Shown here: piece after piece, positions 8,796 through 58,647 of the stretch
How the letters are laid out: each line of letters opens with the position of its first letter
Numbering within the stretch: position 1 is the first letter of the stretch
Origin: Escherichia coli
Lineage (GTDB): Bacteria > Pseudomonadota > Gammaproteobacteria > Enterobacterales > Enterobacteriaceae
Direction: 5' to 3' (one strand)
Assembly (NCBI RefSeq): GCF_009931435.1
Contig: NZ_CP043414.1
DNA length: 64,000 bases
The notes under the pieces: model-generated
Told to the model about the DNA's origin: nothing
The model's input: the letters and a program-made list of their open reading frames with translations, nothing else
Databases searched by the model: none
Position numbers and translations under genes: made by a program

Positions 8796-9046
8796 AACTA
8801 ATCTGGTCTGAGGAATCATGGGATGATTATCTGTACTGGCAGGAAACAGATAAGCGAATTGTTAAAAAGATCAATGAACTTATCAAAGATACCCGCAGAA
8901 CACCATTTGAAGGTAAGGGGAAACCAGAACCCCTGAAACATAATTTGTCAGGTTTCTGGTCCCGACGCATTACAGAGGAGCACCGTCTGGTATACGCGGT
9001 TACTGATGATTCACTGCTCATTGCAGCATGTCGTTATCATTATTGA
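8792..9046 (+). CDS. yoeB: Toxin YoeB (ribosome-dependent mRNA interferase)
   Basis: 84 aa [20 protein letters not shown], translationally coupled to yefM. Confidence 0.9.
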
Positions 9047-19900: not shown

Positions 19901-20227
19901 ATGACTAAAAATACTCGTTTTTCCCCCGAAGTCCGTCAACGGGCAGTCCGTATGGTTCTGGAAAGTCAGAGCGAATATGACTCACAATGGGCGACAATTT
20001 GTTCCATTGCTCCAAAGATTGGCTGTACGCCGGAGACTCTGCGTGTCTGGGTTCGCCAGCATGAGCGGGATACCGGGGGCGGTGATGGAGGGCTCACCAC
20101 CGCTGAACGTCAGCGTCTGAAAGAGCTGGAACGTGAAAATCGTGAACTGCGCCGCAGTAACGATATCCTTCGCCAGGCTTCCGCTTATTTTGCGAAGGCG
20201 GAGTTCGACCGCCTCTGGAAAAAATGA
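19901..20227 (+). CDS. IS3-family transposase OrfA (HTH)
   Basis: 108 aa [21 protein letters not shown]...; A-rich slippery stretch (GGAAAAAATGA) at the orfA/orfB overlap. Confidence 0.85.
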
Positions 20228-20641
20228 TGCCACTGCTGGATAAGCTGCGTGAGCAGTACGGGGTCAGACCGGTATGCAGCGAACTGCATATTGCCCCGTC
20301 AACGTATTACCATTGTCAGCAACAGCGACATCATCCGGATAAACGCAGTGCCCGTGCGCAGCACGATGACTGGCTGAAGAAAGAGATACAGCGCGTATAC
20401 GATGAAAATCACCAGGTATACGGTGTGCGTAAAGTCTGGCGTCAGTTGTTACGGGAAGGTATCAGAGTGGCCAGATGCACTGTGGCACGTCTCATGGCGG
20501 TTATGGGACTTGCCGGTGTTCTCCGGGGTAAAAAGGTCCGTACGACCATCAGCCGGAAAGCCGTTGCCGCAGGCGACCGCGTAAACCGTCAGTTCGTGGC
20601 AGAACGACCTGACCAGCTGTGGGTGGCTGATTTTACTTACG
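20224..20641 (+). CDS. IS3-family transposase OrfB, 5' exon (upstream of intron)
   Basis: Reading frame matches IS3-family OrfB up to ...[10 protein letters not shown], then diverges at intron 5' end. Confidence 0.8.
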
Positions 20642-21297
20642 GTGTGCCCGGAGTTCAGGGCGGGCATGGATGCTTAAATGAACCGCGAGTCTGTCTGGAA
20701 TATTGAACCGGTAACTCACGATGAGAAACCCAACAATCCCACCGGGTGTGACGGTGGAGAACCTGAGCGGCAGTGACCTGCGGCATGCCCGCAGGGTGAT
20801 GTAACCCGCTGACAACGGGGATTGAGGCGAGATCACTAAGCCGAGATGATCCTCAAGGTTAAGTACTGAAAGGCTGAAGAACATGAACCCGTTAATCCGC
20901 CTCTGTGGGTTGAAAACGTCACCACGGCCTACGTGATCTGACAGGCCGTGCAGGAGGAACTGGCAGTGATACGTAAGCACTGCCGGTCGAAGGTGTTTTG
21001 ACATGTATGCGAAACACCGGGGCAGCAGCGTCTATCACGCTTGCGTTGCTGACTTCTGCCAACTTGCGGCAAGCAAGGATAAAGAGTGCGACGGGCAGCC
21101 TCCTCAGTATGCCTGAGTCCAGGCAGGTAAACCGGGGAAGGTCAGCGACGGATGTTAAGGGGGCATGGCTCCGATGACGCGCTGGCTGGCGGAGCTTCCG
21201 TAGTAGTCCGCGATGGGGAAAGCCCATTACATGGCGAAGGGAAGCAGTTTGAATGTGTTTGCGACGTGAATTAACTGACCTAACGAGGTGAAGACCT

Positions 21298-22821
21298 TTG
21301 ATAATCAGCGAAATGCAACGCAAGCTTGCCACATGGGCAGTCACCGATCCGTCCCTACGGATTCAACGGCTGCTGCGTCTGATAACACAACCAGAATGGC
21401 TGGCTGAAGCGGCGCGGATCACGCTTTCATCAAAGGGGGCCCATACCCCCGGCGTTGATGGCGTGAACAAAACAATGCTACAGGCCAGACTGGCTGTTGA
21501 GCTGCAAATCCTCAGGGATGAATTACTCTCAGGCCACTACCAGCCCTTGCCCGCCAGACGGGTTTACATCCCTAAAAGCAACGACAAACTGCGACCACTG
21601 GGTATCCCCGCGTTGCGGGATCGTATTGTTCAGCGGGCCATGCTGATGGCGATGGAGCCGATATGGGAGAGTGATTTTCATACGCTCTCATATGGCTTCC
21701 GGCCTGAGCGCAGTGTCCACCACGCTATCCGCACGGTGAAATTACAGCTCACAGACTGTGGTGAAACCCGGGGACGCTGGGTGATTGAAGGCGACCTGTC
21801 CAGTTACTTCGACACCGTACATCATCGACTGCTGATGAAGGCTGTACGCCGCAGGATCAGTGACGCACGTTTCATGACTCTGCTGTGGAAAACCATCAAG
21901 GCGGGACATATCGATGTCGGTCTCTTTCGGGCGGCCAGTGAAGGTGTGCCACAGGGCGGTGTTATATCGCCGCTATTATCGAACATCATGCTGAATGAGT
22001 TCGATCAATACCTGCATGAGCGCTACCTGAGCGGGAAAGCCAGAAAAGATCGGTGGTACTGGAATAACAGTATCCAACGGGGCCGAAGTACGGCGGTCAG
22101 AGAAAACTGGCAGTGGAAACCCGCGGTGGCGTACTGCCGCTATGCCGATGATTTTGTCCTCATCGTCAAAGGCACCAAAGCACAGGCGGAAGCCATCAGG
22201 GAGGAGTGTCGGGGTGTGCTCGAAGGCAGTCTGAAACTCAGGCTGAACATGGATAAGACTAAAATCACCCATGTTAATGACGGCTTTATCTTTCTGGGGC
22301 ACAGGATCATTCGCAAACGCAGTCGTTATGGCGAGATGCGAGTGGTCTCAACGATCCCGCAGGAGAAAGCCAGAAACTTCGCCGCATCGCTGACAGCACT
22401 GTTATCAGGCAACTACAGTGAAAGCAAAGTCGATATGGCTGAACAACTCAACCGAAAACTGAAAGGCTGGGCCATGTTCTATCAGTTCGTTGATTTTAAG
22501 GCCAAAGTCTTCAGTTATATCGACCGTGTCGTGTTCTGGAAGCTGGCTCACTGGCTGGCCCGCAAATACCGTACAGGTATCGCTTCCCTGATGAGGTGGT
22601 GGTGTAAATCACCGAAACCGGGTCAGAGCAAAACGTGGGTTTTATTTGGTAAAACCAATCACGGCAAGCTCAGCGGCGAAATACTGTACCGGTTGGTGGG
22701 GCAAGGCAAGAAGCTGTTCCGCTGGCGGCTACCCGAAGGTAATCCCTATCTGAGGACGGAGACCAGAAACACGTATACATCGCGCTTTACAGAAGTGGCA
22801 ATGGCGTTCGCCAGCATTTAA
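21298..22821 (+). CDS. Group II intron-encoded reverse transcriptase/maturase
   Basis: 507 aa; RT motifs (…RRVYIPK…LRPLGIP…, YADDFVL) followed by maturase X-like domain; located inside the intron. Confidence 0.85.
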   Translation: MIISEMQRKLATWAVTDPSLRIQRLLRLITQPEWLAEAARITLSSKGAHTPGVDGVNKTMLQARLAVELQILRDELLSGHYQPLPARRVYIPKSNDKLRPLGIPALRDRIVQRAMLMAMEPIWESDFHTLSYGFRPERSVHHAIRTVKLQLTDCGETRGRWVIEGDLSSYFDTVHHRLLMKAVRRRISDARFMTLLWKTIKAGHIDVGLFRAASEGVPQGGVISPLLSNIMLNEFDQYLHERYLSGKARKDRWYWNNSIQRGRSTAVRENWQWKPAVAYCRYADDFVLIVKGTKAQAEAIREECRGVLEGSLKLRLNMDKTKITHVNDGFIFLGHRIIRKRSRYGEMRVVSTIPQEKARNFAASLTALLSGNYSESKVDMAEQLNRKLKGWAMFYQFVDFKAKVFSYIDRVVFWKLAHWLARKYRTGIASLMRWWCKSPKPGQSKTWVLFGKTNHGKLSGEILYRLVGQGKKLFRWRLPEGNPYLRTETRNTYTSRFTEVAMAFASI

Positions 22822-22826
22822 ATGGA

Positions 22827-22860
22827 GAGCCGGATGCGCTGAAAGGTGCACGTCCGGTTC
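22827..22860 (+). ncRNA. Group II intron domain V (catalytic hairpin)
   Basis: GAGCCGGATGCGCTGAAAGGTGCACGTCCGGTTC: 34-nt hairpin with AGC triad and GAAA tetraloop, followed by domain VI with bulged A about 7 nt from the 3' splice site. Confidence 0.7.
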
Positions 22861-22883
22861 GGGGAGGAGAGGCAGGGAAATAG

Positions 22884-23384
<501 letters not shown>

Positions 23385-23542: not shown

Positions 23543-24330
23543 TTACATATATGCAGCTACCATCACTTCTTCTGGTGAAATCTCTTTATCGTTGGTTAGC
23601 AATACCCAGAGCACTCTGGCATTTTTGTTGTTCAGCGCTACGGTGGCAACATTTTTATTCCGCCGCGAGACTGGTCTGCCCAGCCAACTTTCCTGGACCT
23701 GTCTGCCCTTTCTGGCGTTTGACACTGTCTTCGCACCATGGAACAGTAGCGTTCTGATATAGACATCGTCCCGTTTACTGATAGACCCCAGCGTGTTTTT
23801 ACCTACGCTGAAGCACTGTCGGGGAACCAGTCCAAGCCATGCAGCAAGCTGACGCCGGTTTTTGAAGCCGATACTACCCGGTGCTGACAATTGCAGTGGT
23901 GGTAAGAATAGCAATCCCCGAAATGGTGGCAATTTTCCTACACAGTTCGTCGTTCCCGACGTGTTCGTTGCTCACGGCTTCTATGGTTTCAATGTGTACG
24001 CTCAGTTGTTTCACATTTTCATTAGAGATAGGACGACAGCTGTCTGAACGGTATTGTTAAACAGTTTTCCGCGTCTTCAGGCAGGGCAGGGACATGACGA
24101 CTGAATGCTACAATGTCGGGCGGGAAAACGATGCCAAATTCAGCCAGTAATTCTCTGATCTGGTTTATCTGCGCAGCCCTTGATTTAACAAATCCCGTTT
24201 GGGCACGATGAAAAGACAGTAATGACTACTGCTCAGGCGTCTTGATGCTGACAAACTGCATATTAGGTCGGGTAACGGCTTCACAGATGGCCTCGGCAGC
24301 AGCCATATCATTCTTGTTTGTTTTCACATA
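23543..24330 (-). pseudogene. IS110-family transposase remnant (5'-truncated, internal stop)
   Basis: C-terminal domain FKNRRQLAAWLGLVPRQ…LGSISKRDDVYIRTLL typical of IS110/IS902 family; upstream frame contains stop and lacks N-terminal DEDD start. Confidence 0.6.
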
Positions 24331-24855
24331 TGGCTTTACAAATCGCGGGCATTAGTCTGACATTATGCCCCTAAGTAGACAGCATTCTCACTAATGACGC
24401 GCTCCGGCGCAGACCTCCATCCCAATCCGACAGGAAGACATATTCGCGAAGAATACGGGCATCAGGGAACGTTTAATCCGTTTTCTGAGCTTAGATTTTT
24501 CTGTTCCTACCCAGACCGTGGATTTGGAATTCATTTTTTGTCAGGTCAATGCTAATCGTTAAAACGGCCATAACGCACCTCCACTGGAAGGTTTATCAGT
24601 AATATCCTACCGTTGCTTCATGGTAGGGGCGTCCATTCCATTATTATCGGTTTTCCTTTCTGTTTATAAATGAAAACGCCAGCTGTATTCAGGCTGGCGT
24701 CAGGGGAAATGAAGCCTGTTGAGTGAGATTCACCGGTTCTGGTGCAGAAGCTGCAGATGGCGCAGGGTAAGGACATCTTCTCTTGCCTGCTTAATACAGG
24801 ACAACAGTGCTGTTTCTGTGGTTAATGGCACTATACCCTGTATCACTGCATTGTC

Positions 24856-25059
24856 TTACAGCAACTGGTGAGGGCTGGCATAAGTTGCCGGTGTTTCGGT
24901 AGAGTCACGTTCATCCACCACGCGGAGTGAATCACCGTTTTCAGCGACCTTGTTAATCAGTTCAGCGAGATTAACACCATCGACGTCAACGACAATGCGC
25001 CCCATGTTCAGCGCCTGCACGTTAACGCTGTCGGCTTCCAGCGTCAGGGCCAGTTTCAT
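24856..25059 (-). CDS. yeeW: YeeW-like small protein downstream of cbtA
   Basis: 67 aa ORF overlapping cbtA stop by 4 bp; conserved position in CP4-type islands. Confidence 0.6.
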   Translation of the reverse strand: MKLALTLEADSVNVQALNMGRIVVDVDGVNLAELINKVAENGDSLRVVDERDSTETPATYASPHQLL

Positions 25060-25433
25060 CGTTTCGCCTCCGGATGCTTCCCCAGGGTAATGTTATTTAC
25101 CGTTCTGTAATTGTCGCGGGTCATCAGGCCTGTTGCCCGGCGAGCCCGGAGGATATCAATACTGTTTATTAACTGAGAGCGGGGACAAGTGCTGAATCCC
25201 GGCTGGTCGGTACGCACCAGCGCGTATTTTTCCACGAGAAAATTCACCGCATCACACAGTGAAATGCCAGCTTCAATATGCTGCTCAATCACACGTTCAT
25301 CGGCGAACGGTGTGTCATTCAGTGTAAGGCCGTAATGCTGGCCCAGTAGTCGGGAGAGCAGAGTCTGCCAGATGGTGACGGGGGACGGGCAGCTCGATGC
25401 CTCCCGTACGTGTGTATCGGGTAATGTTTTCAT
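25056..25433 (-). CDS. cbtA: Cytoskeleton-binding toxin CbtA (YeeV)
   Basis: 125 aa; CbtA/YkfI/YpjF family sequence; immediately downstream of cbeA. Confidence 0.85.
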   Translation of the reverse strand: MKTLPDTHVREASSCPSPVTIWQTLLSRLLGQHYGLTLNDTPFADERVIEQHIEAGISLCDAVNFLVEKYALVRTDQPGFSTCPRSQLINSIDILRARRATGLMTRDNYRTVNNITLGKHPEAKR

Positions 25434-25522
25434 ACTGAAGGTTTTCCTGATATGCAGAGATGAAAAATGGAAAAGTGGCGTGGTGAAAGCACCAGGCCGG
25501 AGCAGAAGGTTATTCCGGTGGT

Positions 25523-25891
25523 TTACTTTTTCGTTTCGGGCGTCGGATAAACAGCCAGATAAACGTAACCACCGCTACCGAGGGTGTCAGCTTTGCAGGT
25601 CAGACCTTTCGCATACAGCGTGACGGTATGCTGATGGCGGGGATTCAGTTCACCGCTGGTGAGCATGAGTTCCAGTTGTTTCATCAGCAGCGGAAAGGCC
25701 TGGTCCAGGTGGTACGCATCTGCATCGCTGAACAGGCCTCTGATACCGGCGCGGTCGGCAAGGTAATGCAGGCGGTTACCCTCCTGCACCAGACGTGCCC
25801 CGAAACAGGGCGTCACGGTGCAGGGCAGCCCCCACCAGGGGCGGTCGTGATTGTCGTCGGGAAGCATTGTCCCGGAGAGTGCGTCTGACAC
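25523..25891 (-). CDS. cbeA: Antitoxin CbeA (YeeU)
   Basis: 122 aa; YeeU/YafW/YfjZ family. Confidence 0.85.
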   Translation of the reverse strand: MSDALSGTMLPDDNHDRPWWGLPCTVTPCFGARLVQEGNRLHYLADRAGIRGLFSDADAYHLDQAFPLLMKQLELMLTSGELNPRHQHTVTLYAKGLTCKADTLGSGGYVYLAVYPTPETKK

Positions 25892-26053
25892 GATAAAATC
25901 CTCACAGAAAATCGGTTAAGAATGGTTTAACGATGACAGGTCAGCCGGCGCGCAGACCGCCTTCGGTAAAGGTGTATTCGTTTATGAGCAGGGCCTCATC
26001 CACAGCGGCGTCTGAGCTCAGCCAGTCGTACTCGTTTTCCGGGTGACGGAACA

Positions 26054-26275
26054 TCAGTTCAGGGTGACGCTCATCAGCCGGACATACGGGCCAAAACTGT
26101 CCTTACGGCGTTCTGCAAACACGGCCAGCACACCGGGAATATCCTGCACTTCACGACCGGTATACGCTTCAGTGCCACCGTGCCAGCGGTATTTGCCGGT
26201 ACAGAACGGAAAAAGACGGGATGTCGGATGTTGTTGGTGAATTCGCATGGCTTCACCACGGGTGATGATTTTCAT
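26054..26275 (-). CDS. yeeT: DUF987 protein YeeT
   Basis: 73 aa ORF in conserved position between yeeS and cbeA. Confidence 0.8.
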   Translation of the reverse strand: MKIITRGEAMRIHQQHPTSRLFPFCTGKYRWHGGTEAYTGREVQDIPGVLAVFAERRKDSFGPYVRLMSVTLN

Positions 26276-26337
26276 AGTGTGATGCCTCTGAAGACGGAAG
26301 ATAAAAGTGAAAACAGGTGTGATGTGGTTGTGACGGG

Positions 26338-26829
26338 TTAAAGCAGACCATGTTCGGCAAAGGAGAAAACCTGGCTGCCACCGACTATCAGATGGTCCGG
26401 CACCCGGATATCCACCAGGCCCAGTGCCTGTACCAGACGTTCCGTGATAAGGCGGTCTGCCTTGCTGGGTGTGACTTCACCGGACGGGTGATTGTGTGCC
26501 AGCACCACAGCAGCGGCATTGTGATACAGGGCGCGTTTAATCACTTCCCGGGGATGGACTTCCGTGCGGTTGATGGTGCCGGTGAAGAGGGTTTCACCGG
26601 CAATCAGCTGATTCTGGTTATTCAGATACAGCACCCGGAATTCTTCACGCTCCAGTCCCGCCATGTTCAGAATCAGCCATTCCCGTGCCGCACGGGTGGA
26701 GGTGAAGGCCACGCCGGGTTCATGAAGATGGCGGTCCAGGGTTTTCAGGGCCCGTTGAATGAGGCTGCGCTCACCGGGTGTCATCTCTCCGGGCAGAAAG
26801 GAAAGCTGCTGCATTGTCCCTGCCTCCAT
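26338..26829 (-). CDS. yeeS: RadC-like JAB-domain protein YeeS
   Basis: JAMM-type motif region (…VVLAHNHPSGEVTPSKADRLIT…); alternative start MQQLSF at 26814. Confidence 0.8.
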   Translation of the reverse strand: MEAGTMQQLSFLPGEMTPGERSLIQRALKTLDRHLHEPGVAFTSTRAAREWLILNMAGLEREEFRVLYLNNQNQLIAGETLFTGTINRTEVHPREVIKRALYHNAAAVVLAHNHPSGEVTPSKADRLITERLVQALGLVDIRVPDHLIVGGSQVFSFAEHGLL

Positions 26830-27315
26830 TCAGTCGATGATGCGCATAATGGCGCTGCATTCCGGATGCTGCAGGGCGTAATCCCGCAGCCGGTAATAAT
26901 GGACCGTCATGGCATAACACTCCGTACGACAGGCATGATGACTGTACGTCATCAGACAGGCAGCAATGCCAGCGGCTTCCGGGCTCATTTCAGCGCGGTT
27001 GCCGTTCATGGCATTGAACAGTACCCATGTTTCGTCATCATCGTCATCCGGTTCGGGTGCCATAAATGCCCCGCCGTTGTTCAGAGTGTACAGATTCCAG
27101 ATACCACCGCAGTAGTCTTCGCACAGACGGTCCATCCAGCCGAAAACACGGGGCTCCAGGGTCACCCACTGTGGAATGAGGCCAAAATGCTGCGGCCAGA
27201 AGCTGATGCGCTGTTCATCAGGGACTATGGTGGCAACCAGCTGAGGCTGGTCATTCCCTGATGCAGCGGTTACGGAAACAGAAGATGTGGTGGAATTATG
27301 TGAAATGGTTTTCAT
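26830..27315 (-). CDS. Antirestriction protein (ArdB/KlcA-like; YfjX/YafX family)
   Basis: 161 aa with acidic DDDDDETW stretch and family-typical C-terminal region; position upstream of radC-like gene. Confidence 0.75.
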   Translation of the reverse strand: MKTISHNSTTSSVSVTAASGNDQPQLVATIVPDEQRISFWPQHFGLIPQWVTLEPRVFGWMDRLCEDYCGGIWNLYTLNNGGAFMAPEPDDDDDETWVLFNAMNGNRAEMSPEAAGIAACLMTYSHHACRTECYAMTVHYYRLRDYALQHPECSAIMRIID

Positions 27316-27369
27316 GAAATGACTCCTTAAAGGACAAATAAATGCGTGGTTTTCAGGGTAATGGCTGAA

Positions 27370-28188
27370 TCAGCGCAGGCTCTCCAGCAGGGTTTCCGCC
27401 ATCACCCACAATGCGCGGTTGAGCTTAATGTCAGTGTCAATGCTGTGAATGGCACGGGTATGGATACGTTTTCCTTTAGCGCTGCGACCTGAAATTCCGC
27501 CTTTCAGCATATTCTCCTGAATGGTCTGATAAGCACTCCACAGGTCCTTACCGTAATCCTCCCGGCGTCGTGGCGTCAGAATGTCGGCGGTGGTGACGGG
27601 CTGATGTTCGTCACCATAACGGTAAGTCAGTGCCGCCTGTGCCAGCGCCTGGCGTGCCGGTGGCGGCAGAATCAGCGACTGCATGGCATCACGCTTTTCC
27701 TCAATCCGGTCAAAAACCCCCACCACCTCGTAAGCCCCTTCAATGACTCTGTCCACCACATTTCCCCGGTGCGGAACACGCACTTCCCCCAGAGACTGAC
27801 CACAGACGCATCCGTTCTGGCAGACGAACCTGAAGTAACCCGGCAGCATCTGGTAGCTGGAGGTACCGTCATGAGAGTTGAGCAGAATAATTTCAGGGAC
27901 ATGTTCTCCGTTTATCTCTCCGGCCCGCCGCAGACGCAGCATGTGTTTTGTGTATCCCCGGCGGCCCGGGTCGCGCACACGGGTCTGGCAGGCGAAGAAT
28001 GGCTGAAAGCCTTCCCGCTGCAGGCTTTCCAGTACGGTGATGGTGGGGATGTACGTATAGTTCTGGCTTCGGGACGTGTGTTTATCTTCCCCGAAAATCC
28101 CCGGCACATAGTGCATCAGTTCTTCGTGTGTCAGCGGACGGTCACGGCGTATCTGGTTCGCATAACCAAAACGACTGGCTAGTCGCAT
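27370..28188 (-). CDS. DUF932 domain protein (YafZ/YfjQ-like)
   Basis: 272 aa ORF in conserved island position; family assignment from recalled sequence features. Confidence 0.7.
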   Translation of the reverse strand: MRLASRFGYANQIRRDRPLTHEELMHYVPGIFGEDKHTSRSQNYTYIPTITVLESLQREGFQPFFACQTRVRDPGRRGYTKHMLRLRRAGEINGEHVPEIILLNSHDGTSSYQMLPGYFRFVCQNGCVCGQSLGEVRVPHRGNVVDRVIEGAYEVVGVFDRIEEKRDAMQSLILPPPARQALAQAALTYRYGDEHQPVTTADILTPRRREDYGKDLWSAYQTIQENMLKGGISGRSAKGKRIHTRAIHSIDTDIKLNRALWVMAETLLESLR

Positions 28189-28287
28189 AATTTGCTCCTT
28201 ATCGGTGGTTAAGATTTACTGGTGTAATAAATGAAAAAGCCACGTCTCCCGGAGAAGACGCGGCCTGATGGGTGAAATGAATGACGT

Positions 28288-28521
28288 TTATTGTCTGAGA
28301 AGACCGTCACTGGCGAGCCGCGTATTAAGCACCTTTCCGGCATCGGGTTCAGAATTCCGGCAGCGCCAGCGTCGCTGACCTTCCGCGTTGCGGATAACCC
28401 GACGGAAATGCATTCCCGGATCATCCTGGATAAACACATTGCGGTAAGCGGTTATGACAGCAACCGCCTGCCCGTATGAGAAAGATCCTTCAGCCAGGAC
28501 ATACTCTGTGTAACCCGGCAT
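28288..28521 (-). CDS. Small hypothetical protein (77 aa), possibly DUF905-like
   Basis: ORF only; fits a gap between DUF932 gene and downstream exported protein; weak support. Confidence 0.3.
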
Positions 28522-28599
28522 ATCTGTTTTCTCCTGATAAATAAAAAGCCTCTGCCACGCGTTGTGACAGAGGCTGAAGCATGAAACTGACTTCAGGGA

Positions 28600-29055
28600 T
28601 CAGTTAACGTTTTTTCCGGAAACGGTAATCAGCAGTGGATGGTAGTCCTGGGGATTGAAAACCGATAACGGCAGACTGACACGATGGCCGTTACTTTCTT
28701 CAGTTGCTTTAATGATTTCGGTTGTGGCGACATTTTCCACGCACTCCGTTTCCAGAAATGCGTCTGTGGTTCGCGTGGCATTACTGTCACCAAAAGCTTC
28801 CGTTTCCATTTTTCTGGTCACCAGCGTCTGACCATATTTGTCTTTGAGTTGCAGAGTGATGGTGAGGGGGCCAAATCCTTCATCGTTTCCGCCATTATCC
28901 AGCCGGAACTGGTAAGCACAAATATTTCCCGGGAGCCATATCGTATCTGTATTGCGTATACTGATGTAACGTTGATCCTGTGCCCGGAGTGGGGCAGACC
29001 ACGTTAACCCCAGAATGAAGGCGGTAATCATGCAGGTTTTGAACAGGTGAATCAT
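28600..29055 (-). CDS. Hypothetical exported protein (signal peptide, 151 aa)
   Basis: N-terminal hydrophobic signal sequence ending LRA|QD; RBS-like GAGAGG upstream. Confidence 0.5.
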   Translation of the reverse strand: MIHLFKTCMITAFILGLTWSAPLRAQDQRYISIRNTDTIWLPGNICAYQFRLDNGGNDEGFGPLTITLQLKDKYGQTLVTRKMETEAFGDSNATRTTDAFLETECVENVATTEIIKATEESNGHRVSLPLSVFNPQDYHPLLITVSGKNVN

Positions 29056-29130
29056 GGTATTTACCTCTCTGAGTCATGACGATGACACTGACAAATCAGG
29101 TGATAAAGCGTAAAAGGCGCAGAATAGCCG

Positions 29131-31653
29131 TTATGCCGGTAACTCCGGGGGTAATGCTTCTTCCAGTCGGTTAACCATATTGCCGAGATGGGATGCATCA
29201 TATTCCATGACGGGGCGTTGCCTGATGATACTGACCACCAGTGGTTTGATTAACATATTGGTCGCGGCCCGTTGTTGTATACCGGCGGCGAAAATGATCT
29301 CCAGAGCATTCTGATCGATAACACGGGCCAGATTCTCGTTCAGATTTTCAATCTCATGTCCGGTCAGCAGGAAACTGCCGGCAAGCCATGTCACCTGCTC
29401 CTGAATCATTGCCAGAATTTTGACGCGATCTTCTTCAACCAGCGCTCCGGCAATTTTTCCTGATACAGCGGAGGCAATCATTCCCCCCAGAACACCGCCA
29501 ACCACACGCCCTGTCAGTGCACCAAATGGTCCCAGTGGACTGAACAGTATCCCGCCCGCCACTGACCCGACAGCTCCACCTGCCACACCGGAAGATGCCA
29601 CGGCAAGATTCCTGATGAACTGCGCACCGGAGATCCGTCCCCGCAACATTTTGATCATGTCAGGGCCGGTTGTGACAGCTACCAGTGCCAGAGATGTCAC
29701 CAGCGTACCCTTCATTACTTTGTTCAGGGCACTGATATTTCCTGCACCGGTCCCCTTCTGAAGAGCCAGTCGGACAGTCGGGCTGGCAGTCGAAAAATCA
29801 ATGTGCTTCAGCATACCCTGAACAACACTGAGCCGGTGGAGTTGCTGGGTTGTGACGTAGACAGCCAGTGTGCGGGTGAAGGTTTTTCCTGCCTGGACAG
29901 CAGCTGTCTGCAGGGCAGCATCGCGATCGCCGGTGCTGAGCCAGAAGACCGATGCCGTCAGGGCAAAACTGATCCCTCCGGCCGCCAGACTGACAACCGA
30001 ACCCTCGGCAATATCATAAGTGACCGATTCGATGGTCCCGAACCGGGTGATATTACGGGCCTGAGTATAAGTCAGATGTCCCCGACGAATCAGCCGGGAC
30101 GCTTCTGCGGGATCGGTTACACCGGGTACTTTACCTTCGCGGATCTTATTCCTCATGGTTTCAACAGCGCCGGCATACTGATCACGGGGGACTTCCAGTT
30201 GCATGGGGCCATTATTTCCCATGTAACGATACTGTCCGTTTTGTCCGTCGAATGCCGCACCGACGCTACGGGCTGCAGTTGAACAATATTTCGTCTGGAT
30301 TTCTGTTCCGCTGACCAGCCTGTCTGCTCCATTTCTGGCATTATTATCACCGAGGATCCGTGCGTTTTTCAGACGGACTCTGTCGACAATATGGTTTCCC
30401 CGTTCAGCGGCAAACCCATGTCCCTGCCCTCCGGAAGCAAACATTTTCTCATTTGTACTCCAGGTTTCCGGCAGTTTCATGAGAATCAGACCATTCGCCG
30501 TTGCATCGGAAATAAAGCTGTTGTAAGGGCGTTCATAAATTTCCTGACACAGTGTTTCTGTTTCGCGACAAAGAGAGGAGCAGTACCATTCCGGATCCGG
30601 CTTATGATTTTCCGGGGCATGATGTACTTCTGTCAGCCCGCAGGAGGCACAGATACGAAGCTCATCCACGTGATGGAATGATACAAAACGGCGACCTTCT
30701 GAAAAGGGATACCAGTCACCGCCGTCCAGGCAACGATCGAGAAAATCGTCATTTGCTTCCGGTGATAAATTCAGGCGGTTCCGGAAGAGCGTTTTCAGTT
30801 CATCAGGTGTGAATGACAGGTTCTCTTTCAACTGTTCGTTAAACCCTGCCATGTTTCTTTCATACCAGGCATTGTTCAGTAACCAGTTTCCGTCTGCCAG
30901 TTCAAATTCCCTCAGCTCTCCCCGGGAAATCCGTTGAGAAATGAGCGTCAGCCAGATGCGCTCCGTCAGTGAGTCAGGAAGGCTGTAATCGTTTTGCAAA
31001 CTGGTCAGCCACGATTTACTGTTGAGCACCGGTTGTTCTTCCAGTGTCTGGCTGATGGCACAGGTCAGTTTTTTCAGCGCCTGGATCTGGCTGGCCGCCC
31101 ATAGCAGCGTCACTAATGCAGCCAGCCAGTACAACAACCCGCCCCACCACATCAGTGACGGTGAAATATCGTACTGTAACGCGATCAATGGTGCGCATGC
31201 AGAACACGCCATAAGGAAAAAGGCAGTATAAAAACAGCAGTAATACCCGTTAATTTCCTTGCTGATATCTTCTGGTGTGATCCCGTTCTGCTGAATGTTT
31301 TTGATCTGCAGGGGAACAGCCAGCAGACCACCGGCGAGAGCGGTGGTCAGAATAAATTTCACAGAGTCAAAGGTGCGAGCCTCCAGCGCGATATGTTTAC
31401 CATCAAGTCCCCACATGAAGCTGATGATCATTCCGGCAATCGTCAGAAATACGCCTGCCAGCCAGCGAATATGGAACAACCGGGTTATGCGTTCGGTGAT
31501 ATAGCCAGCCAGTAAGGCCGGGCCGAACAGACACAGCAATATGAGCCCTGCCAGCGCAGAAGCCGTGCTGATTAATGCTCTGAACAAAAGGCGAAGAATG
31601 GCAAATCCTGCGATCAGCAGGATCAGCGCGCCGACTATCTGTAACATAGTCAC
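29131..31653 (-). CDS. yeeR: YeeR-like inner membrane protein (840 aa) with C-terminal glycine-zipper region
   Basis: Multiple N-terminal TM segments; C-terminal G/A-rich zipper-like segments; located between flu and the antirestriction/DUF932 cluster. Confidence 0.65.
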   Translation of the reverse strand: MTMLQIVGALILLIAGFAILRLLFRALISTASALAGLILLCLFGPALLAGYITERITRLFHIRWLAGVFLTIAGMIISFMWGLDGKHIALEARTFDSVKFILTTALAGGLLAVPLQIKNIQQNGITPEDISKEINGYYCCFYTAFFLMACSACAPLIALQYDISPSLMWWGGLLYWLAALVTLLWAASQIQALKKLTCAISQTLEEQPVLNSKSWLTSLQNDYSLPDSLTERIWLTLISQRISRGELREFELADGNWLLNNAWYERNMAGFNEQLKENLSFTPDELKTLFRNRLNLSPEANDDFLDRCLDGGDWYPFSEGRRFVSFHHVDELRICASCGLTEVHHAPENHKPDPEWYCSSLCRETETLCQEIYERPYNSFISDATANGLILMKLPETWSTNEKMFASGGQGHGFAAERGNHIVDRVRLKNARILGDNNARNGADRLVSGTEIQTKYCSTAARSVGAAFDGQNGQYRYMGNNGPMQLEVPRDQYAGAVETMRNKIREGKVPGVTDPAEASRLIRRGHLTYTQARNITRFGTIESVTYDIAEGSVVSLAAGGISFALTASVFWLSTGDRDAALQTAAVQAGKTFTRTLAVYVTTQQLHRLSVVQGMLKHIDFSTASPTVRLALQKGTGAGNISALNKVMKGTLVTSLALVAVTTGPDMIKMLRGRISGAQFIRNLAVASSGVAGGAVGSVAGGILFSPLGPFGALTGRVVGGVLGGMIASAVSGKIAGALVEEDRVKILAMIQEQVTWLAGSFLLTGHEIENLNENLARVIDQNALEIIFAAGIQQRAATNMLIKPLVVSIIRQRPVMEYDASHLGNMVNRLEEALPPELPA

Positions 31654-31767: not shown

Positions 31768-34700
31768 TCAGAAGGTCACATTCAGTGTGGCCTGACCGTT
31801 ATACCCTTCAGCGCTGCTGCCGCTGACGCTGTGGGCATAACCGGCCTGAACGCCCAGGGTGATATTTTCCCGGACACGGGCTTCCAGTCCGGCCTGCAGG
31901 TCCAGTGATGTGCCATTCTGTGAGGGAGAGAACGTCATCCCGCTGCCTGCAGTGGAAGTCCCCACACGCATATCTCCCCGGGAGCTGAAGGTGCGGATAA
32001 CAGAAGGCTGTACCCACCAGTTCACCGGTAATTCACTCACACTGTGTTTTGCACTGTCACGCAGGGGGGCACGGGATGAGGTGCCTTCGCCAAAGGTCAT
32101 ATCGTTGTGGCTGCCCAGACGGAAACCGGCACGCACATGTTGTGCACTGCCATGCCCGAACTTCACATAACCGGCGTTGTCCTTACCGTCATCCAGGGAA
32201 AGTCCCTGCCAGGTATACTGCAGTTGTGGCTCCAGCATCAGGTTGTCAGTGATACTGAAGGGCAGACCGGTTTCCAGTGAGCCCAGCCAGCCCCAGCCCC
32301 GGGCGCGGAAGTCGTTATTGTCCGATGACGCTTTCATGCTGTGGCGGGTTCCCTGTGCCACAATGTCAGCCCACAGGCCGGAGGACGTGTGTGTCAGATT
32401 CAGGTATCCGCCCAGGCTGCCGGCATCATCCCGGACCGTGCCGGCACGGGAGCCGTCATCATCCTTAACATCAACGGAAGAATGGCCAGCAGCACCATAT
32501 ACCCCCGCGGTCACAGACATACCGGCAACCTCTGTTCTCATCAGGTCACCCTCCAGACGGACGAATCCATAGCTGCCGCTGCTTTCCGGCGTGGCCCCAC
32601 GGGCAATACCGCCATTGTTATCGTGACCGAGATGACCGCCCTGAATGCTGAGACGGACGCTGTTGTTTTCACCATTTACACCGGTCTGATGGCTGCGGGA
32701 GCCTGCCACAATCCGGTCATAGTCCATTGCCTGTGTCAGCATGGAGGCATACAGGGGGACTTCTGCACGATAAGCATTTTCACTGCGCAGATACCAGCTC
32801 TCACCACTGTCCCGGTTGAGGGAGTAGTTAAAGGCACCGGCCTGCAGCCTGTTCCCCTGGACAAAGGCCCCTTCCTCCGTGGTGGCACCGTTAATGGCTT
32901 CCACCACCTGAATACCCTTACCGCTGGTCGCCAGCCCCGACGCACTGTTGCCGGCGTTCACCAGGTTCAGGATGGTTTTTCCGGTTGCCCTGCCGCCGTC
33001 AATGACCAGTCTGTCAGCATTGTTCTGTGCCATATCCGGGCGTACACGCAGGCTGATGGTGCCATTCTGTCCGTTCAGGTTTTTCACTTTCAGGGTTGCC
33101 GGTACGAACTTCCCTGTGCGGGTGGAGGTGAAATGAATCTGTCCGGCATGGCTGAGGTCATCCACCACCGACTGCACCGTGGCGTTATCGGGGATATTCC
33201 AGGTGGCACCGGAGGCGAGAGTGACATTCGTGGGGTCAATGGCACCGTTCAGCACAGTGCTGCCGGTCAGCTTCAGGGCTGTACCGCGCTGAGCAATGAC
33301 ATCCGTGGTGACGGTACTGTCGTTCAGCGTCAGCGTGCCTTCATTCAGGTTGACGGCTTTCTGGGTGAGTGTGGTGTTGCTGACAGTGAGTGTGCCACTT
33401 CCTGATTTTTCCACGCTGCCGTTACCGGTGAGAGAGCCTCCCTGCAGGAGTGCATCGCCTTCACGGATGGTCAGGGTATCGTTGTTCACCGTCTTCCCGG
33501 AAAGGGTAAGTATGGCGCCGTTATTCAGCGTGGTGGTGCCCGCCAGTGTGCCGCCCCTGGCGGTGAACAGTCCGCCATTTACCGTGGTATCCGTGGCCGT
33601 ATCACCGGCGTTCAGCGTGAATGAACTGCCTTTTTCCAGCATCAGGGCATCCGCCTGACCGCCTCCGATACTGAATGCCTTTCCGTCGCTCCGGGTACCA
33701 CTGACAGCGGCACCGGAATCGGCCAGCAGTACACCGCCATTTCCCATGGATACGGTGGTGGCGGTACCACCGTTGCGGACATCCAGCGTTCCGCCATCAT
33801 CCACGCGGGTATTAGTGGCTGTGTGTCCGGTCAGCACATCCAGGCGTCCGCCATTTTCCAGTACGACATTATCAGCTTTACCCTCCACAACCGAGAATGC
33901 TCCAAGGCGGTTTATGCCGGTAACGGTTGCAGCCGTACTGGTAACCAGTGCGCCGCCCTGCTTCAGGGTGACATTCGTGGCTGTACCACCGGCGTCCACC
34001 TGCAGTCTGCCCTTCTGATTAACGGTGGTATTCCCGGCCACACCCCCGTTTTTGACAATCTGCCAGCCGTCACTGTTCACAACAGTGTCAGACGCTGTAC
34101 CGCCGTTGTGCACATACTGGTATCCCCCATTCAGCGTGGTATCCAGTGCGTGACCATGTACAGTCTGGTCGCCGCCGGCATAAACCACAGTGGTATTTGC
34201 CGTTCCTTCAGTTCTCACAATCTGGCGACCGTTTTTATTGATGGTTGTGCGTACGGCATCCCCGCGAACAAACTGCCCGGTATCACCGTTTTCTGCATCC
34301 GGTCCCCCTTCCGCCCCGGTATTAACAACGGTATCCGTTGCCACTGTACCGGGCTTGACGACCTGCCAGCCCTTATCATTAATGACGGTTCCTGTGGCTA
34401 TCGCCCCCTCATGCATCCACTGTTCGCCACCATTCAGCGTGGTGTTCACTGCCCGTCCCTGAAGGCTCTGTCCGCCTCCGGCACTGATAACCGTGTCTGA
34501 GACACTTCCACCGGGGTTCACTCTCTGAAGACCACCACTGGTGACAGTCGTTTTGTTGGCTGTTCCGCCATCCTGTACCCATTGCCCGCCGGTATTGGCC
34601 TCGTTATCCGGCCCATACTCCAGCCCGGTACTGATGGTCATTCCGTTGGTCGTACCGAAGACAATCTGGTTGTCATGATTTTCCAGTGTTCCGCCGTTCA

Positions 34701-34887
34701 CGGTTTCACCTGCCTGTACAATACTGTCAGCAGCCAGGGCCGGGACTGACGTGACAGCAGCAAGAGACAGAGCAACCGCCACACCGGCGCCTTTTCCCCG
34801 TGAGCGGGCCAGTTCGGAGGCCACCACCAGGGTGCCCGTAATGTGATTCCATACCAGCCTGTAGCTGGTGTTCAGATGTCGTTTCAT
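31768..34887 (-). CDS. flu: Antigen 43 autotransporter adhesin (self-associating autotransporter)
   Basis: 1039 aa from MKRHLNTSYRLVWNHITGTLVVASELA extended signal peptide; repetitive beta-helix passenger; C-terminal beta-barrel ending …ATLNVTF. Confidence 0.9.
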   Translation of the reverse strand: MKRHLNTSYRLVWNHITGTLVVASELARSRGKGAGVAVALSLAAVTSVPALAADSIVQAGETVNGGTLENHDNQIVFGTTNGMTISTGLEYGPDNEANTGGQWVQDGGTANKTTVTSGGLQRVNPGGSVSDTVISAGGGQSLQGRAVNTTLNGGEQWMHEGAIATGTVINDKGWQVVKPGTVATDTVVNTGAEGGPDAENGDTGQFVRGDAVRTTINKNGRQIVRTEGTANTTVVYAGGDQTVHGHALDTTLNGGYQYVHNGGTASDTVVNSDGWQIVKNGGVAGNTTVNQKGRLQVDAGGTATNVTLKQGGALVTSTAATVTGINRLGAFSVVEGKADNVVLENGGRLDVLTGHTATNTRVDDGGTLDVRNGGTATTVSMGNGGVLLADSGAAVSGTRSDGKAFSIGGGQADALMLEKGSSFTLNAGDTATDTTVNGGLFTARGGTLAGTTTLNNGAILTLSGKTVNNDTLTIREGDALLQGGSLTGNGSVEKSGSGTLTVSNTTLTQKAVNLNEGTLTLNDSTVTTDVIAQRGTALKLTGSTVLNGAIDPTNVTLASGATWNIPDNATVQSVVDDLSHAGQIHFTSTRTGKFVPATLKVKNLNGQNGTISLRVRPDMAQNNADRLVIDGGRATGKTILNLVNAGNSASGLATSGKGIQVVEAINGATTEEGAFVQGNRLQAGAFNYSLNRDSGESWYLRSENAYRAEVPLYASMLTQAMDYDRIVAGSRSHQTGVNGENNSVRLSIQGGHLGHDNNGGIARGATPESSGSYGFVRLEGDLMRTEVAGMSVTAGVYGAAGHSSVDVKDDDGSRAGTVRDDAGSLGGYLNLTHTSSGLWADIVAQGTRHSMKASSDNNDFRARGWGWLGSLETGLPFSITDNLMLEPQLQYTWQGLSLDDGKDNAGYVKFGHGSAQHVRAGFRLGSHNDMTFGEGTSSRAPLRDSAKHSVSELPVNWWVQPSVIRTFSSRGDMRVGTSTAGSGMTFSPSQNGTSLDLQAGLEARVRENITLGVQAGYAHSVSGSSAEGYNGQATLNVTF

Positions 34888-35069
34888 CAGCTTTTCCTTA
34901 GATTGAGGGTGAATAAAAAAGCCGGTACCCACAAACGTGGATACCGGCAGGTAAAGGGTTACAGTGCCGGAGGTCCGGCTGTGGGAGTTTCTGAATTGTG
35001 GTTCTGTTGTTCCCTGAATGTCTTTCTGTACGTATCTGTGCATGTTACTGACAAAGGTTATTATTAGCT

Positions 35070-35112
35070 TATCGATCGATATAAACGATCGATAAAATAG
35101 ATATCGATCGTT
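35070..35112 (-). promoter_or_regulatory. agn43 (flu) phase-variation switch: OxyR-binding region with three Dam GATC sites
   Basis: GATC at 35074-35077, 35087-35090 and 35106-35109 within 36 bp in the flu 5' region. Confidence 0.7.
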
Positions 35113-51602: not shown

Positions 51603-51678
51603 TGGCTCCTCTGACTGGACTCGAACCAGTGACATACGGATTAACAGTCCGCCGTTCTACCGACTGAACTACAGAGGA
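51603..51678 (-). tRNA. asnV: tRNA-Asn (GUU)
   Basis: 76-nt sequence TCCTCTGTAGTTCAGTCGGTAGAACGGCGGACTGTTAATCCG…GGAGCCA on minus strand; anticodon GTT. Confidence 0.9.
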
Positions 51679-54011: not shown

Positions 54012-54087
54012 TGGCTCCTCTGACTGGACTCGAACCAGTGACATACGGATTAACAGTCCGCCGTTCTACCGACTGAACTACAGAGGA
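54012..54087 (-). tRNA. asnU: tRNA-Asn (GUU)
   Basis: Identical 76-nt tRNA-Asn sequence on minus strand. Confidence 0.9.
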
Positions 54088-58571: not shown

Positions 58572-58647
58572 TCCTCTGTAGTTCAGTCGGTAGAACGGCG
58601 GACTGTTAATCCGTATGTCACTGGTTCGAGTCCAGTCAGAGGAGCCA
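58572..58647 (+). tRNA. asnW: tRNA-Asn (GUU)
   Basis: Identical 76-nt tRNA-Asn on plus strand (inverted relative to the other two copies). Confidence 0.9.

Follow-up and report, generated by a model that had tools for sequence, protein, structure and literature searches.

A CbtA/CbeA toxin-antitoxin and antirestriction gene cassette of the CP4 type at the CP4-44 locus of an Escherichia coli chromosome

The CbtA/CbeA pair of Escherichia coli K-12 has been named the first type IV toxin-antitoxin system, and the three K-12 pairs of this type are toxic and neutralised, show no autoregulation and have upstream genes that appear to share an operon with them (PMC5371832). The genes lfgABCDE of the CP4-57 island (yfjX-yfjY-ypjJ-yfjZ-ypjF) and yafX-ykfG-ykfH-yafW-ykfI of the CP4-6 island form the same five-gene core, in the order ArdB-RadC/JAB-DUF987-antitoxin-toxin; lfgABCDE has been reported to be an operon (PMC10846083), and Wen et al. 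treated the five CP4-6 genes as apparently one operon (PMC5371832). The pheU, pheV and selC islands of Shiga toxin-producing E. coli are also described as carrying this gene set (PMC6174562). Here we analyse a copy of this cassette in a 64,000-nucleotide stretch of an E. coli genome (contig NZ_CP043414.1; hereafter the window, position 1 being its first letter). The cassette as such has been described before and is found extremely often in E. coli, and it is highly probable that the window holds the standard distal cassette of E. coli CP4-type islands, at the CP4-44 locus and in an undeleted form. Worth keeping beyond this are the exact limits of a deletion in the K-12 copy, with its consequences for K-12 YeeR and YeeS, and a toxin allele with Cys15.

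The open reading frame (ORF) listing of the 22-32 kb part of the window contains seven minus-strand genes, all in one orientation, at 24856-28188, comprising six intact genes and a truncated yeeW. The string opens with a DUF932 gene, a paralogue of yafZ and yfjQ (27370-28188; 272 amino acids (aa); PF06067, 176.8 bits, full-length), which is the probable first gene of the transcription unit, and continues with an ArdB/KlcA-type antirestriction gene (26830-27315; 161 aa; PF03230, E 2.4e-37, 127.4 bits against a cut-off of 25) and yeeS, encoding a RadC-like protein of the JAB metalloprotease type (26338-26814; 158 aa from the start called by the Prokaryotic Genome Annotation Pipeline (PGAP); PF04002, E 1.5e-44, 151.3 bits against 22.1). 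These are followed by yeeT (26054-26275; 73 aa; PF06174 or DUF987, E 5.2e-38, 129.2 bits, full-length), cbeA or yeeU, the type IV antitoxin gene (25523-25891; 122 aa, GTG start; PF06154, E 4.7e-53, 178.4 bits against 27), and the CbtA-family toxin gene (25056-25433; 125 aa; PF06755, E 9.9e-62, 206.3 bits against 25, covering positions 1-112 of the 112 in the profile). The last member, yeeW (24856-25059; 67 aa; PF25638 or DUF5983_N, E 4.5e-29), is truncated, since it matches DUF5983 solely through the N-terminal domain model (100.3 bits).

In the profile search the Pfam E-values of the cassette genes thus range from 4.5e-29 to 9.9e-62, and since the hits are full-length and above the gathering score, chance matches are excluded. 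The gaps between successive genes from DUF932 to yeeW are 54, 15, 62, 162, 89 and -4 nt, the last being an overlap of the yeeW start with the toxin stop, and a Shine-Dalgarno-like sequence is present at each gene. These observations bear out the original prediction, made from the letters alone, in its naming of the families and in its placing of a co-directional string here. Its description of the string as tightly packed is roughly right, though 162 nt separate yeeT from cbeA; the yeeW gene that it included is indeed found, but lies beyond the start at 25056 that was given for the cassette, and is truncated. Four antisense plus-strand ORFs (26350-27261, 27604-28182, 25628-25888 and 25372-25623) lack any Pfam match and are regarded as shadow ORFs, and an Rfam search gave no match within 24856-28188.

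Among the matches listed, 13 complete E. coli chromosomes, including that of the enterotoxigenic strain TW11681, agree with the segment 24700-28600 at 100% identity. In the TW11681 annotation the cassette sits between tmaR-yeeA-sbmC-dacD-sbcB and cobU, which is the CP4-44 site of K-12, and the window is 99.96-100% identical to TW11681 over about 40-42.6 kb, IS2 apart. The window is thus E. coli chromosome at the CP4-44 locus and a positional orthologue of K-12 CP4-44. Read along the minus strand from the cobU side, the order is a GTPase gene (an intact yeeP), the IsrC RNA, Ag43, a gene for an 840-aa hypothetical protein, an IrmA-family gene, DUF905, DUF932, the antirestriction gene, yeeS, yeeT, cbeA, the toxin gene, a DUF5983 pseudogene (yeeW) and a DUF957 fragment, beyond which lie an IS110 fragment and then an IS3/IS629 copy into which a group II intron is inserted. 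The IS2 copy in TW11681 lies between yefM and yoeB and truncates yoeB; the window (8821-8825) is without it.

This cassette is widespread. With the same 3.9-kb segment as query, at least 80% of its length was found in 4,267 of 5,426 complete E. coli genomes (~79%), at a total of 14,794 places, the median being three in genomes with at least one.

Comparison with K-12 CP4-44 indicates that the K-12 form is the unusual one. A BLAST comparison of the window with K-12 yields three blocks at CP4-44, namely window 35767-30127 with K-12 2070659-2076299 (99.0% identity), 26790-26054 with 2076302-2077038 (96.6%) and 25926-24472 with 2077077-2078518 (93.1%); the identity across yeeP-flu-yeeR is 99% at the DNA level. 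K-12 CP4-44 is without window positions 26791-30126, a stretch of 3,336 bp, delimited by the BLAST blocks and the junction sequence, that comprises the final 333 codons (1 kb) of the 840-aa, full-length yeeR gene, the IrmA-family gene, DUF905, DUF932, ardB and codons 1-8 of yeeS. Its annotated order is correspondingly flu-yeeR-yeeS-yeeT-cbeA-cbtA-yeeW (yeeR to yeeW being b2001-b2006), and K-12 YeeR (510 aa) is made up of the first 507 residues of the 840-aa protein followed by three codons from the junction. The 3,336-bp deletion thus accounts for K-12 YeeR as a truncated fusion and for K-12 YeeS starting at an internal Met, without its native start and ribosome-binding site. A 201-nt probe for the K-12 junction, with at least 80% of its length matched, was found in only 385 of the 5,426 genomes, and since the cassette query is present in 4,267 of them, the window form is the normal one and the K-12 form a derivative. 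Thus, the K-12 CP4-44 cassette, which serves as the reference for CbtA/CbeA work, is itself a deletion derivative. Each edge of the segment missing from K-12 carries the pentamer CCCGG (window 26787-26791 and 30122-30126); a deletion mediated by it was rejected, as the K-12 junction, GTA-GAG-GAGAGATGAC, differs from the product expected of such recombination.

In other respects the two copies are alike, with the same site between cobU and tmaR/yeeA, the same gene order and strand and the same truncated yeeW end; the alignment is unbroken across the yeeW/DUF957 junction down to 24472, showing that this decay is common to both. The proteins are 99% (YeeS), 97% (YeeT), 93% (CbeA), 89.5% (toxin) and 84% (YeeW) identical to those of K-12, whereas the yeeT-cbeA spacer measures 73 nt in K-12 and 162 nt in the window.

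The CP4-6 and CP4-57 cassettes are more distant, with proteins 56-82% identical to the window copy, toxins of 109-113 aa and antitoxins of 105 aa, both shorter than the window's. Both islands also carry a DUF932 gene (yafZ, yfjQ) and a GTPase gene upstream, the DUF932 gene adjoining the GTPase gene, but there several genes (the yafY/yfjS lipoprotein genes, ykfB/yfjT and DUF905) part DUF932 from ardB. In the window DUF905 is followed by DUF932 and then directly by ardB, whereas in CP4-6 and CP4-57 it is a DUF905-type gene that precedes ardB, YkfF of CP4-6 being a DUF905 protein. A further difference is that the position equivalent to the MqsA-bound promoter region of CP4-57, 245 bp upstream of lfgA, falls here inside the DUF932 coding sequence.

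A complete nine-gene version of the cassette is found in strain 138, in an island at tRNA-Ser next to ghrA. It is collinear with the window for DUF932-ardB-JAB-DUF987-YeeU-CbtA, with 88.5% DNA identity over 3.5 kb, and continues past the toxin gene with intact DUF5983 (163 aa), DUF957 (65 aa) and DUF4942 genes. Window 24904-28409 aligns at this identity and the homology breaks at 24904, while 24643-24812 aligns to the 3' end of the intact DUF957 gene. Relative to strain 138 the window has therefore lost ~460 bp, which held the C-terminal two-thirds of DUF5983 together with the 5' part of DUF957, and the whole DUF4942 gene as well. In identical sequence PGAP calls yeeW a pseudogene "missing C-terminus", in keeping with its 67 aa against 163 aa in the intact copy, and the C-terminal DUF957 fragment (24730-24822, minus strand) likewise a pseudogene.

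Comparison with the CP4-6, CP4-44, CP4-57 and strain 138 cassettes thus recovers the same collinear core, the placement of DUF932 relative to DUF905 and ardB differing in CP4-6 and CP4-57, and the ardB-JAB-DUF987-antitoxin-toxin order common to these two islands agrees with the earlier view of a typical CP4-type cassette and known biology. The statement that the antirestriction and DUF932 genes are absent from K-12 CP4-44 proved correct, both in the K-12 annotation and in the 3,336-bp alignment gap. The accompanying claim that the window version is more complete holds for the upstream side, but not downstream, where yeeW and DUF957 are decayed as in K-12 and DUF4942 is missing.

The toxin, which PGAP labels "CbtA family protein" and not cbtA, differs from K-12 CbtA mainly in a cluster at residues 6-31. 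Phe65 is kept, within the segment DAVNF65LVEKY, and the substitution F65S abolishes FtsZ binding in CbtA, YkfI and YpjF (PMC5624674). At residue 15, where K-12 CbtA has Arg, the window toxin has Cys (codon 25389-25391, minus strand), a state shared, together with Phe65, by the CP4-6 and CP4-57 toxins. When R15C is introduced into K-12 CbtA, MreB binding is lost and filaments replace lemon-shaped cells; however, Cys15 is native in YpjF and YkfI, and YpjF still binds MreB (PMC5624674). The Cys15 allele may conceivably have separated MreB inhibition from FtsZ inhibition, and given Cys15 the K-12 CbtA phenotypes may not carry over one-to-one to the window toxin. The window's toxin 5' allele is in the minority, being found at 99% identity or more in 75 genomes and at 95-99% in 876 more, against 2,463 genomes for the K-12-type allele at 99% identity or more.

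The antitoxin gene lies 89 nt upstream of the toxin gene on the same strand, and its product matches the solved structure of YeeU (PDB 2h28; E 1.1e-77). K-12 CbeA reportedly protects the toxin's targets by bundling FtsZ and MreB filaments without binding the toxin. From the 93% identity to K-12 CbeA we infer that the window CbeA would likewise operate in the type IV mode. Among diverged copies the variable sites of cbeA are distributed as 15/10/33 over the three codon positions (33 of 58 in the third).

The antirestriction protein is close to the solved ArdB (PDB 2wj9; E 1.4e-100), with a single mismatch (D/N) from residue 26 to the C-terminus, and more distant from the solved KlcA (PDB 2kmg; E 8.4e-21); its identity is 67% with YafX and 70% with YfjX. 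The 2wj9 protein is the ArdB (ORF14; 157 aa) of pathogenicity island II in the uropathogenic E. coli CFT073, which inhibits all four type I restriction-modification families in vivo, YafX and YfjX being likewise antirestriction proteins in vivo (PMC2836571). CFT073 ArdB differs from the window protein in the N-terminal ~25 residues, including a 4-residue indel.

Although the yeeS frame is open up to 26829, the ATG at 26814 alone has a Shine-Dalgarno sequence (GGAGG) ahead of it. YeeS retains an intact JAMM motif of the form H-x-H-x7-S-x2-D (HNHPSGEVTPSKAD), and shares 99% of its residues with K-12 YeeS (over 148 aa), 82% with YkfG and 72% with LfgB/YfjY. As it lacks the N-terminal half of RadC, it falls under the NCBIfam cut-off for the full-length RadC equivalog (159.8 against 180). 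LfgB has been reported to degrade the antitoxin MqsA (PMC10846083). The variable sites of yeeT fall 4/4/22 over the codon positions (22 of 30 in the third), indicating that it is under coding selection. The predicted structure of the DUF932 protein (an AF2 model) is confident (pLDDT 93), but no close neighbour was found for it among solved structures; P29, C123, N125, H140 and G230 are invariant in an alignment of 105 sequences. The DUF932, DUF987 and DUF905 proteins are extremely common in E. coli islands and F-type plasmids, yet uncharacterised.

The signals between the genes fit a single unit from DUF932 to yeeW. Two strong terminator-like hairpins are present on the minus strand, one after the IrmA-family gene (28575-28547) and one after DUF905 (28266-28237); the latter has a 13-pair stem with 7 GC pairs and a U-run, with a z-score of -3.79 for the fold of 28189-28287, and bounds the probable unit running from DUF932 to yeeW on its upstream side. 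Within that stretch, no hairpin of the terminator type exceeds 9 stem pairs or 4 GC pairs. DUF905 itself (28288-28521, minus strand; 77 aa; PF06006, E 9.5e-18) lies upstream of this hairpin, as an associate in the same island module. The long form of the yeeT-cbeA spacer (25892-26053, minus strand), ~90 nt beyond the K-12 form, is present in 3,218 genomes and unannotated; neither it (z +0.43) nor the cbeA-cbtA spacer (z -1.57) shows a significant RNA fold. A 37-codon ORF in this spacer, starting at ~26051 with a TGATG overlap with the yeeT stop, is open in six copies of 87-100% identity. It was rejected as a small gene, since its variable sites (6/10/5 by codon position) are without the third-position bias that is seen in yeeT and cbeA.

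The homologues suggest how such a cassette might operate. Its genes would be co-transcribed, as has been reported for lfgABCDE; the toxin would bind FtsZ via the F65 surface and block its polymerisation and thereby division, and would probably also hit MreB, resulting in an elongation block, while CbeA would neutralise it as a type IV antitoxin by binding and bundling the filaments of both target proteins without contacting the toxin. ArdB would relieve type I restriction in vivo by an indirect route, and YeeS is predicted to act as a JAB zinc metalloprotease. The most plausible reading overall is that the module serves the island, with ArdB, and perhaps DUF932 and DUF905, potentially providing anti-restriction or establishment functions on entry into a new host, and the toxin-antitoxin pair potentially acting as a post-segregational or stress-linked growth brake.

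Several points weigh against parts of this reading. The MreB targeting by the window allele is uncertain, because R15C prevents CbtA from interacting with MreB, yet the Cys15 toxin YpjF binds MreB. A classical addiction role is weakened, since transcription of the K-12 paralogues is low and deletion of their antitoxins is possible (PMC5371832). The LfgB preparation was poorly soluble, and contaminating proteases could not be excluded by its authors (PMC10846083). As no sigma-70 consensus promoter is found in the ~50 nt between the 28237-28266 hairpin and the DUF932 start, co-transcription from DUF932 to yeeW is something that we infer. Finally, the cassette shows decay at its 3' end, where it adjoins debris of insertion sequences (IS).

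The last point raises the question of whether the cassette is merely non-functional cargo of a dead island, hitch-hiking with its chromosome and with ORFs that are intact through recency rather than selection. The truncated yeeW, the DUF957 fragment, the missing DUF4942, the adjoining IS110 fragment and intron-bearing IS3/IS629 copy, the tolerated loss of 3.3 kb in K-12 and the low expression of the K-12 paralogues (PMC5371832) would all fit such decay. However, six ORFs are full-length, copies that have diverged to 87-95% DNA identity still keep the frames, yeeT and cbeA showing a strong third-position bias, and deletion or expression of the K-12 paralogues gives phenotypes (PMC5371832, PMC10846083, PMC5624674). 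Together with the presence of the cassette in 4,267 of 5,426 genomes, at a median of three places each, this makes a mere relic quite improbable. Many toxin-antitoxin systems of islands are defence systems, and CbtA/CbeA might by analogy be an abortive-infection module triggered by a phage that perturbs FtsZ/MreB or shuts off host expression. The neighbouring 840-aa protein does weakly match a PADLOC defence candidate, but none of the seven cassette proteins matched the PADLOC models of known anti-phage defence systems at E<=0.001, the adjacent ArdB is an anti-defence rather than a defence gene, and two papers on these toxin-antitoxin pairs deal with cytoskeleton targeting and stress phenotypes rather than phage defence (PMC5371832, PMC5624674). 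We therefore regard a role in phage defence as very unlikely.

A different origin is suggested by the plasmid relatives of the upstream genes. At least 5,000 enterobacterial plasmids carry a DUF932 homologue (~62% identity), and 4,458 of these plasmids (89%) are predicted to be conjugative. In pO83_CORR, the one plasmid whose gene neighbourhood was examined, DUF932 has the oriT-proximal SLT gene and traM as neighbours, and DUF905, ssb, psiB and hok also belong to the leading region. This plasmid context of DUF932 and DUF905 speaks for assigning the upstream half of the cassette to the "leading-region" establishment type (Samuel et al., PMC11541004). ArdB/KlcA genes are classical plasmid antirestriction genes (PMC2836571), and toxin-antitoxin genes are over-represented in leading regions (PMC11541004). 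DUF905-DUF932-ardB, with or without the JAB, DUF987 and toxin-antitoxin genes, might accordingly be a fossil of the early-expressed establishment and anti-defence region of a conjugative element and work like it, with its main role at transfer into a new host and not in island maintenance. On the other hand, the cassette sits at the island's far end, beside the IS debris, and whereas an F-type plasmid has a full tra operon, the TW11681 stretch matching window 6037-48600 has no annotated tra gene, oriT or relaxase. Nor was an element resembling an ssDNA promoter found, no search aimed at one having been made. CP4-type islands are not known to transfer themselves. The 18.8-kb leading-region stretch of pO83_CORR, in turn, has no annotated CbtA/CbeA, JAB or DUF987 genes. 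Given these differences, the fossil origin is possible but on balance unlikely, and the more specific proposal that DUF905-DUF932-ardB is a chromosomal copy of a conjugative-plasmid leading-region module, with DUF932 as an establishment or anti-defence enzyme, is rather doubtful. The CP4-type cassette serving its island remains the preferred reading.

Some neighbouring features of the window deserve mention. The 840-aa protein (29131-31653, minus strand) is a multi-pass membrane protein that falls into no Pfam or NCBIfam family, and its weak PADLOC matches are to the candidate PDC-M09B (E 5.9e-6 and 4.9e-5). Between its gene and DUF905 lies the IrmA-family gene (interleukin receptor mimic protein A; 28600-29055, minus strand; PF18673, E 2e-37), which is found at that position in none of the three K-12 CP4 cassettes, ykfB and yfjT having no Pfam match. 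On the other side of the cassette, the IS3/IS629-type element (20182-22911, plus strand), with an ALIL pseudoknot at 20182-20298, is interrupted by the group II intron, whose reverse transcriptase/maturase ORF occupies 21298-22821 and whose Intron_gpII RNA domain lies at 22825-22911; the IS110 fragment follows the intron at ~23543-23932. Directly upstream of Ag43, as in K-12 CP4-44, is a full-length Rfam match to the IS102/IsrC small RNA (34908-35111, minus strand; 253 bits); the Ag43 open frame spans 31768-35043, PGAP calling 3,120 nt of it. Past the cobUST side lie three tRNA-Asn(GTT) genes (51603-51678 and 54012-54087 on the minus strand, 58572-58647 on the plus strand), consistent with the asnV/asnU/asnW region of E. 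coli.

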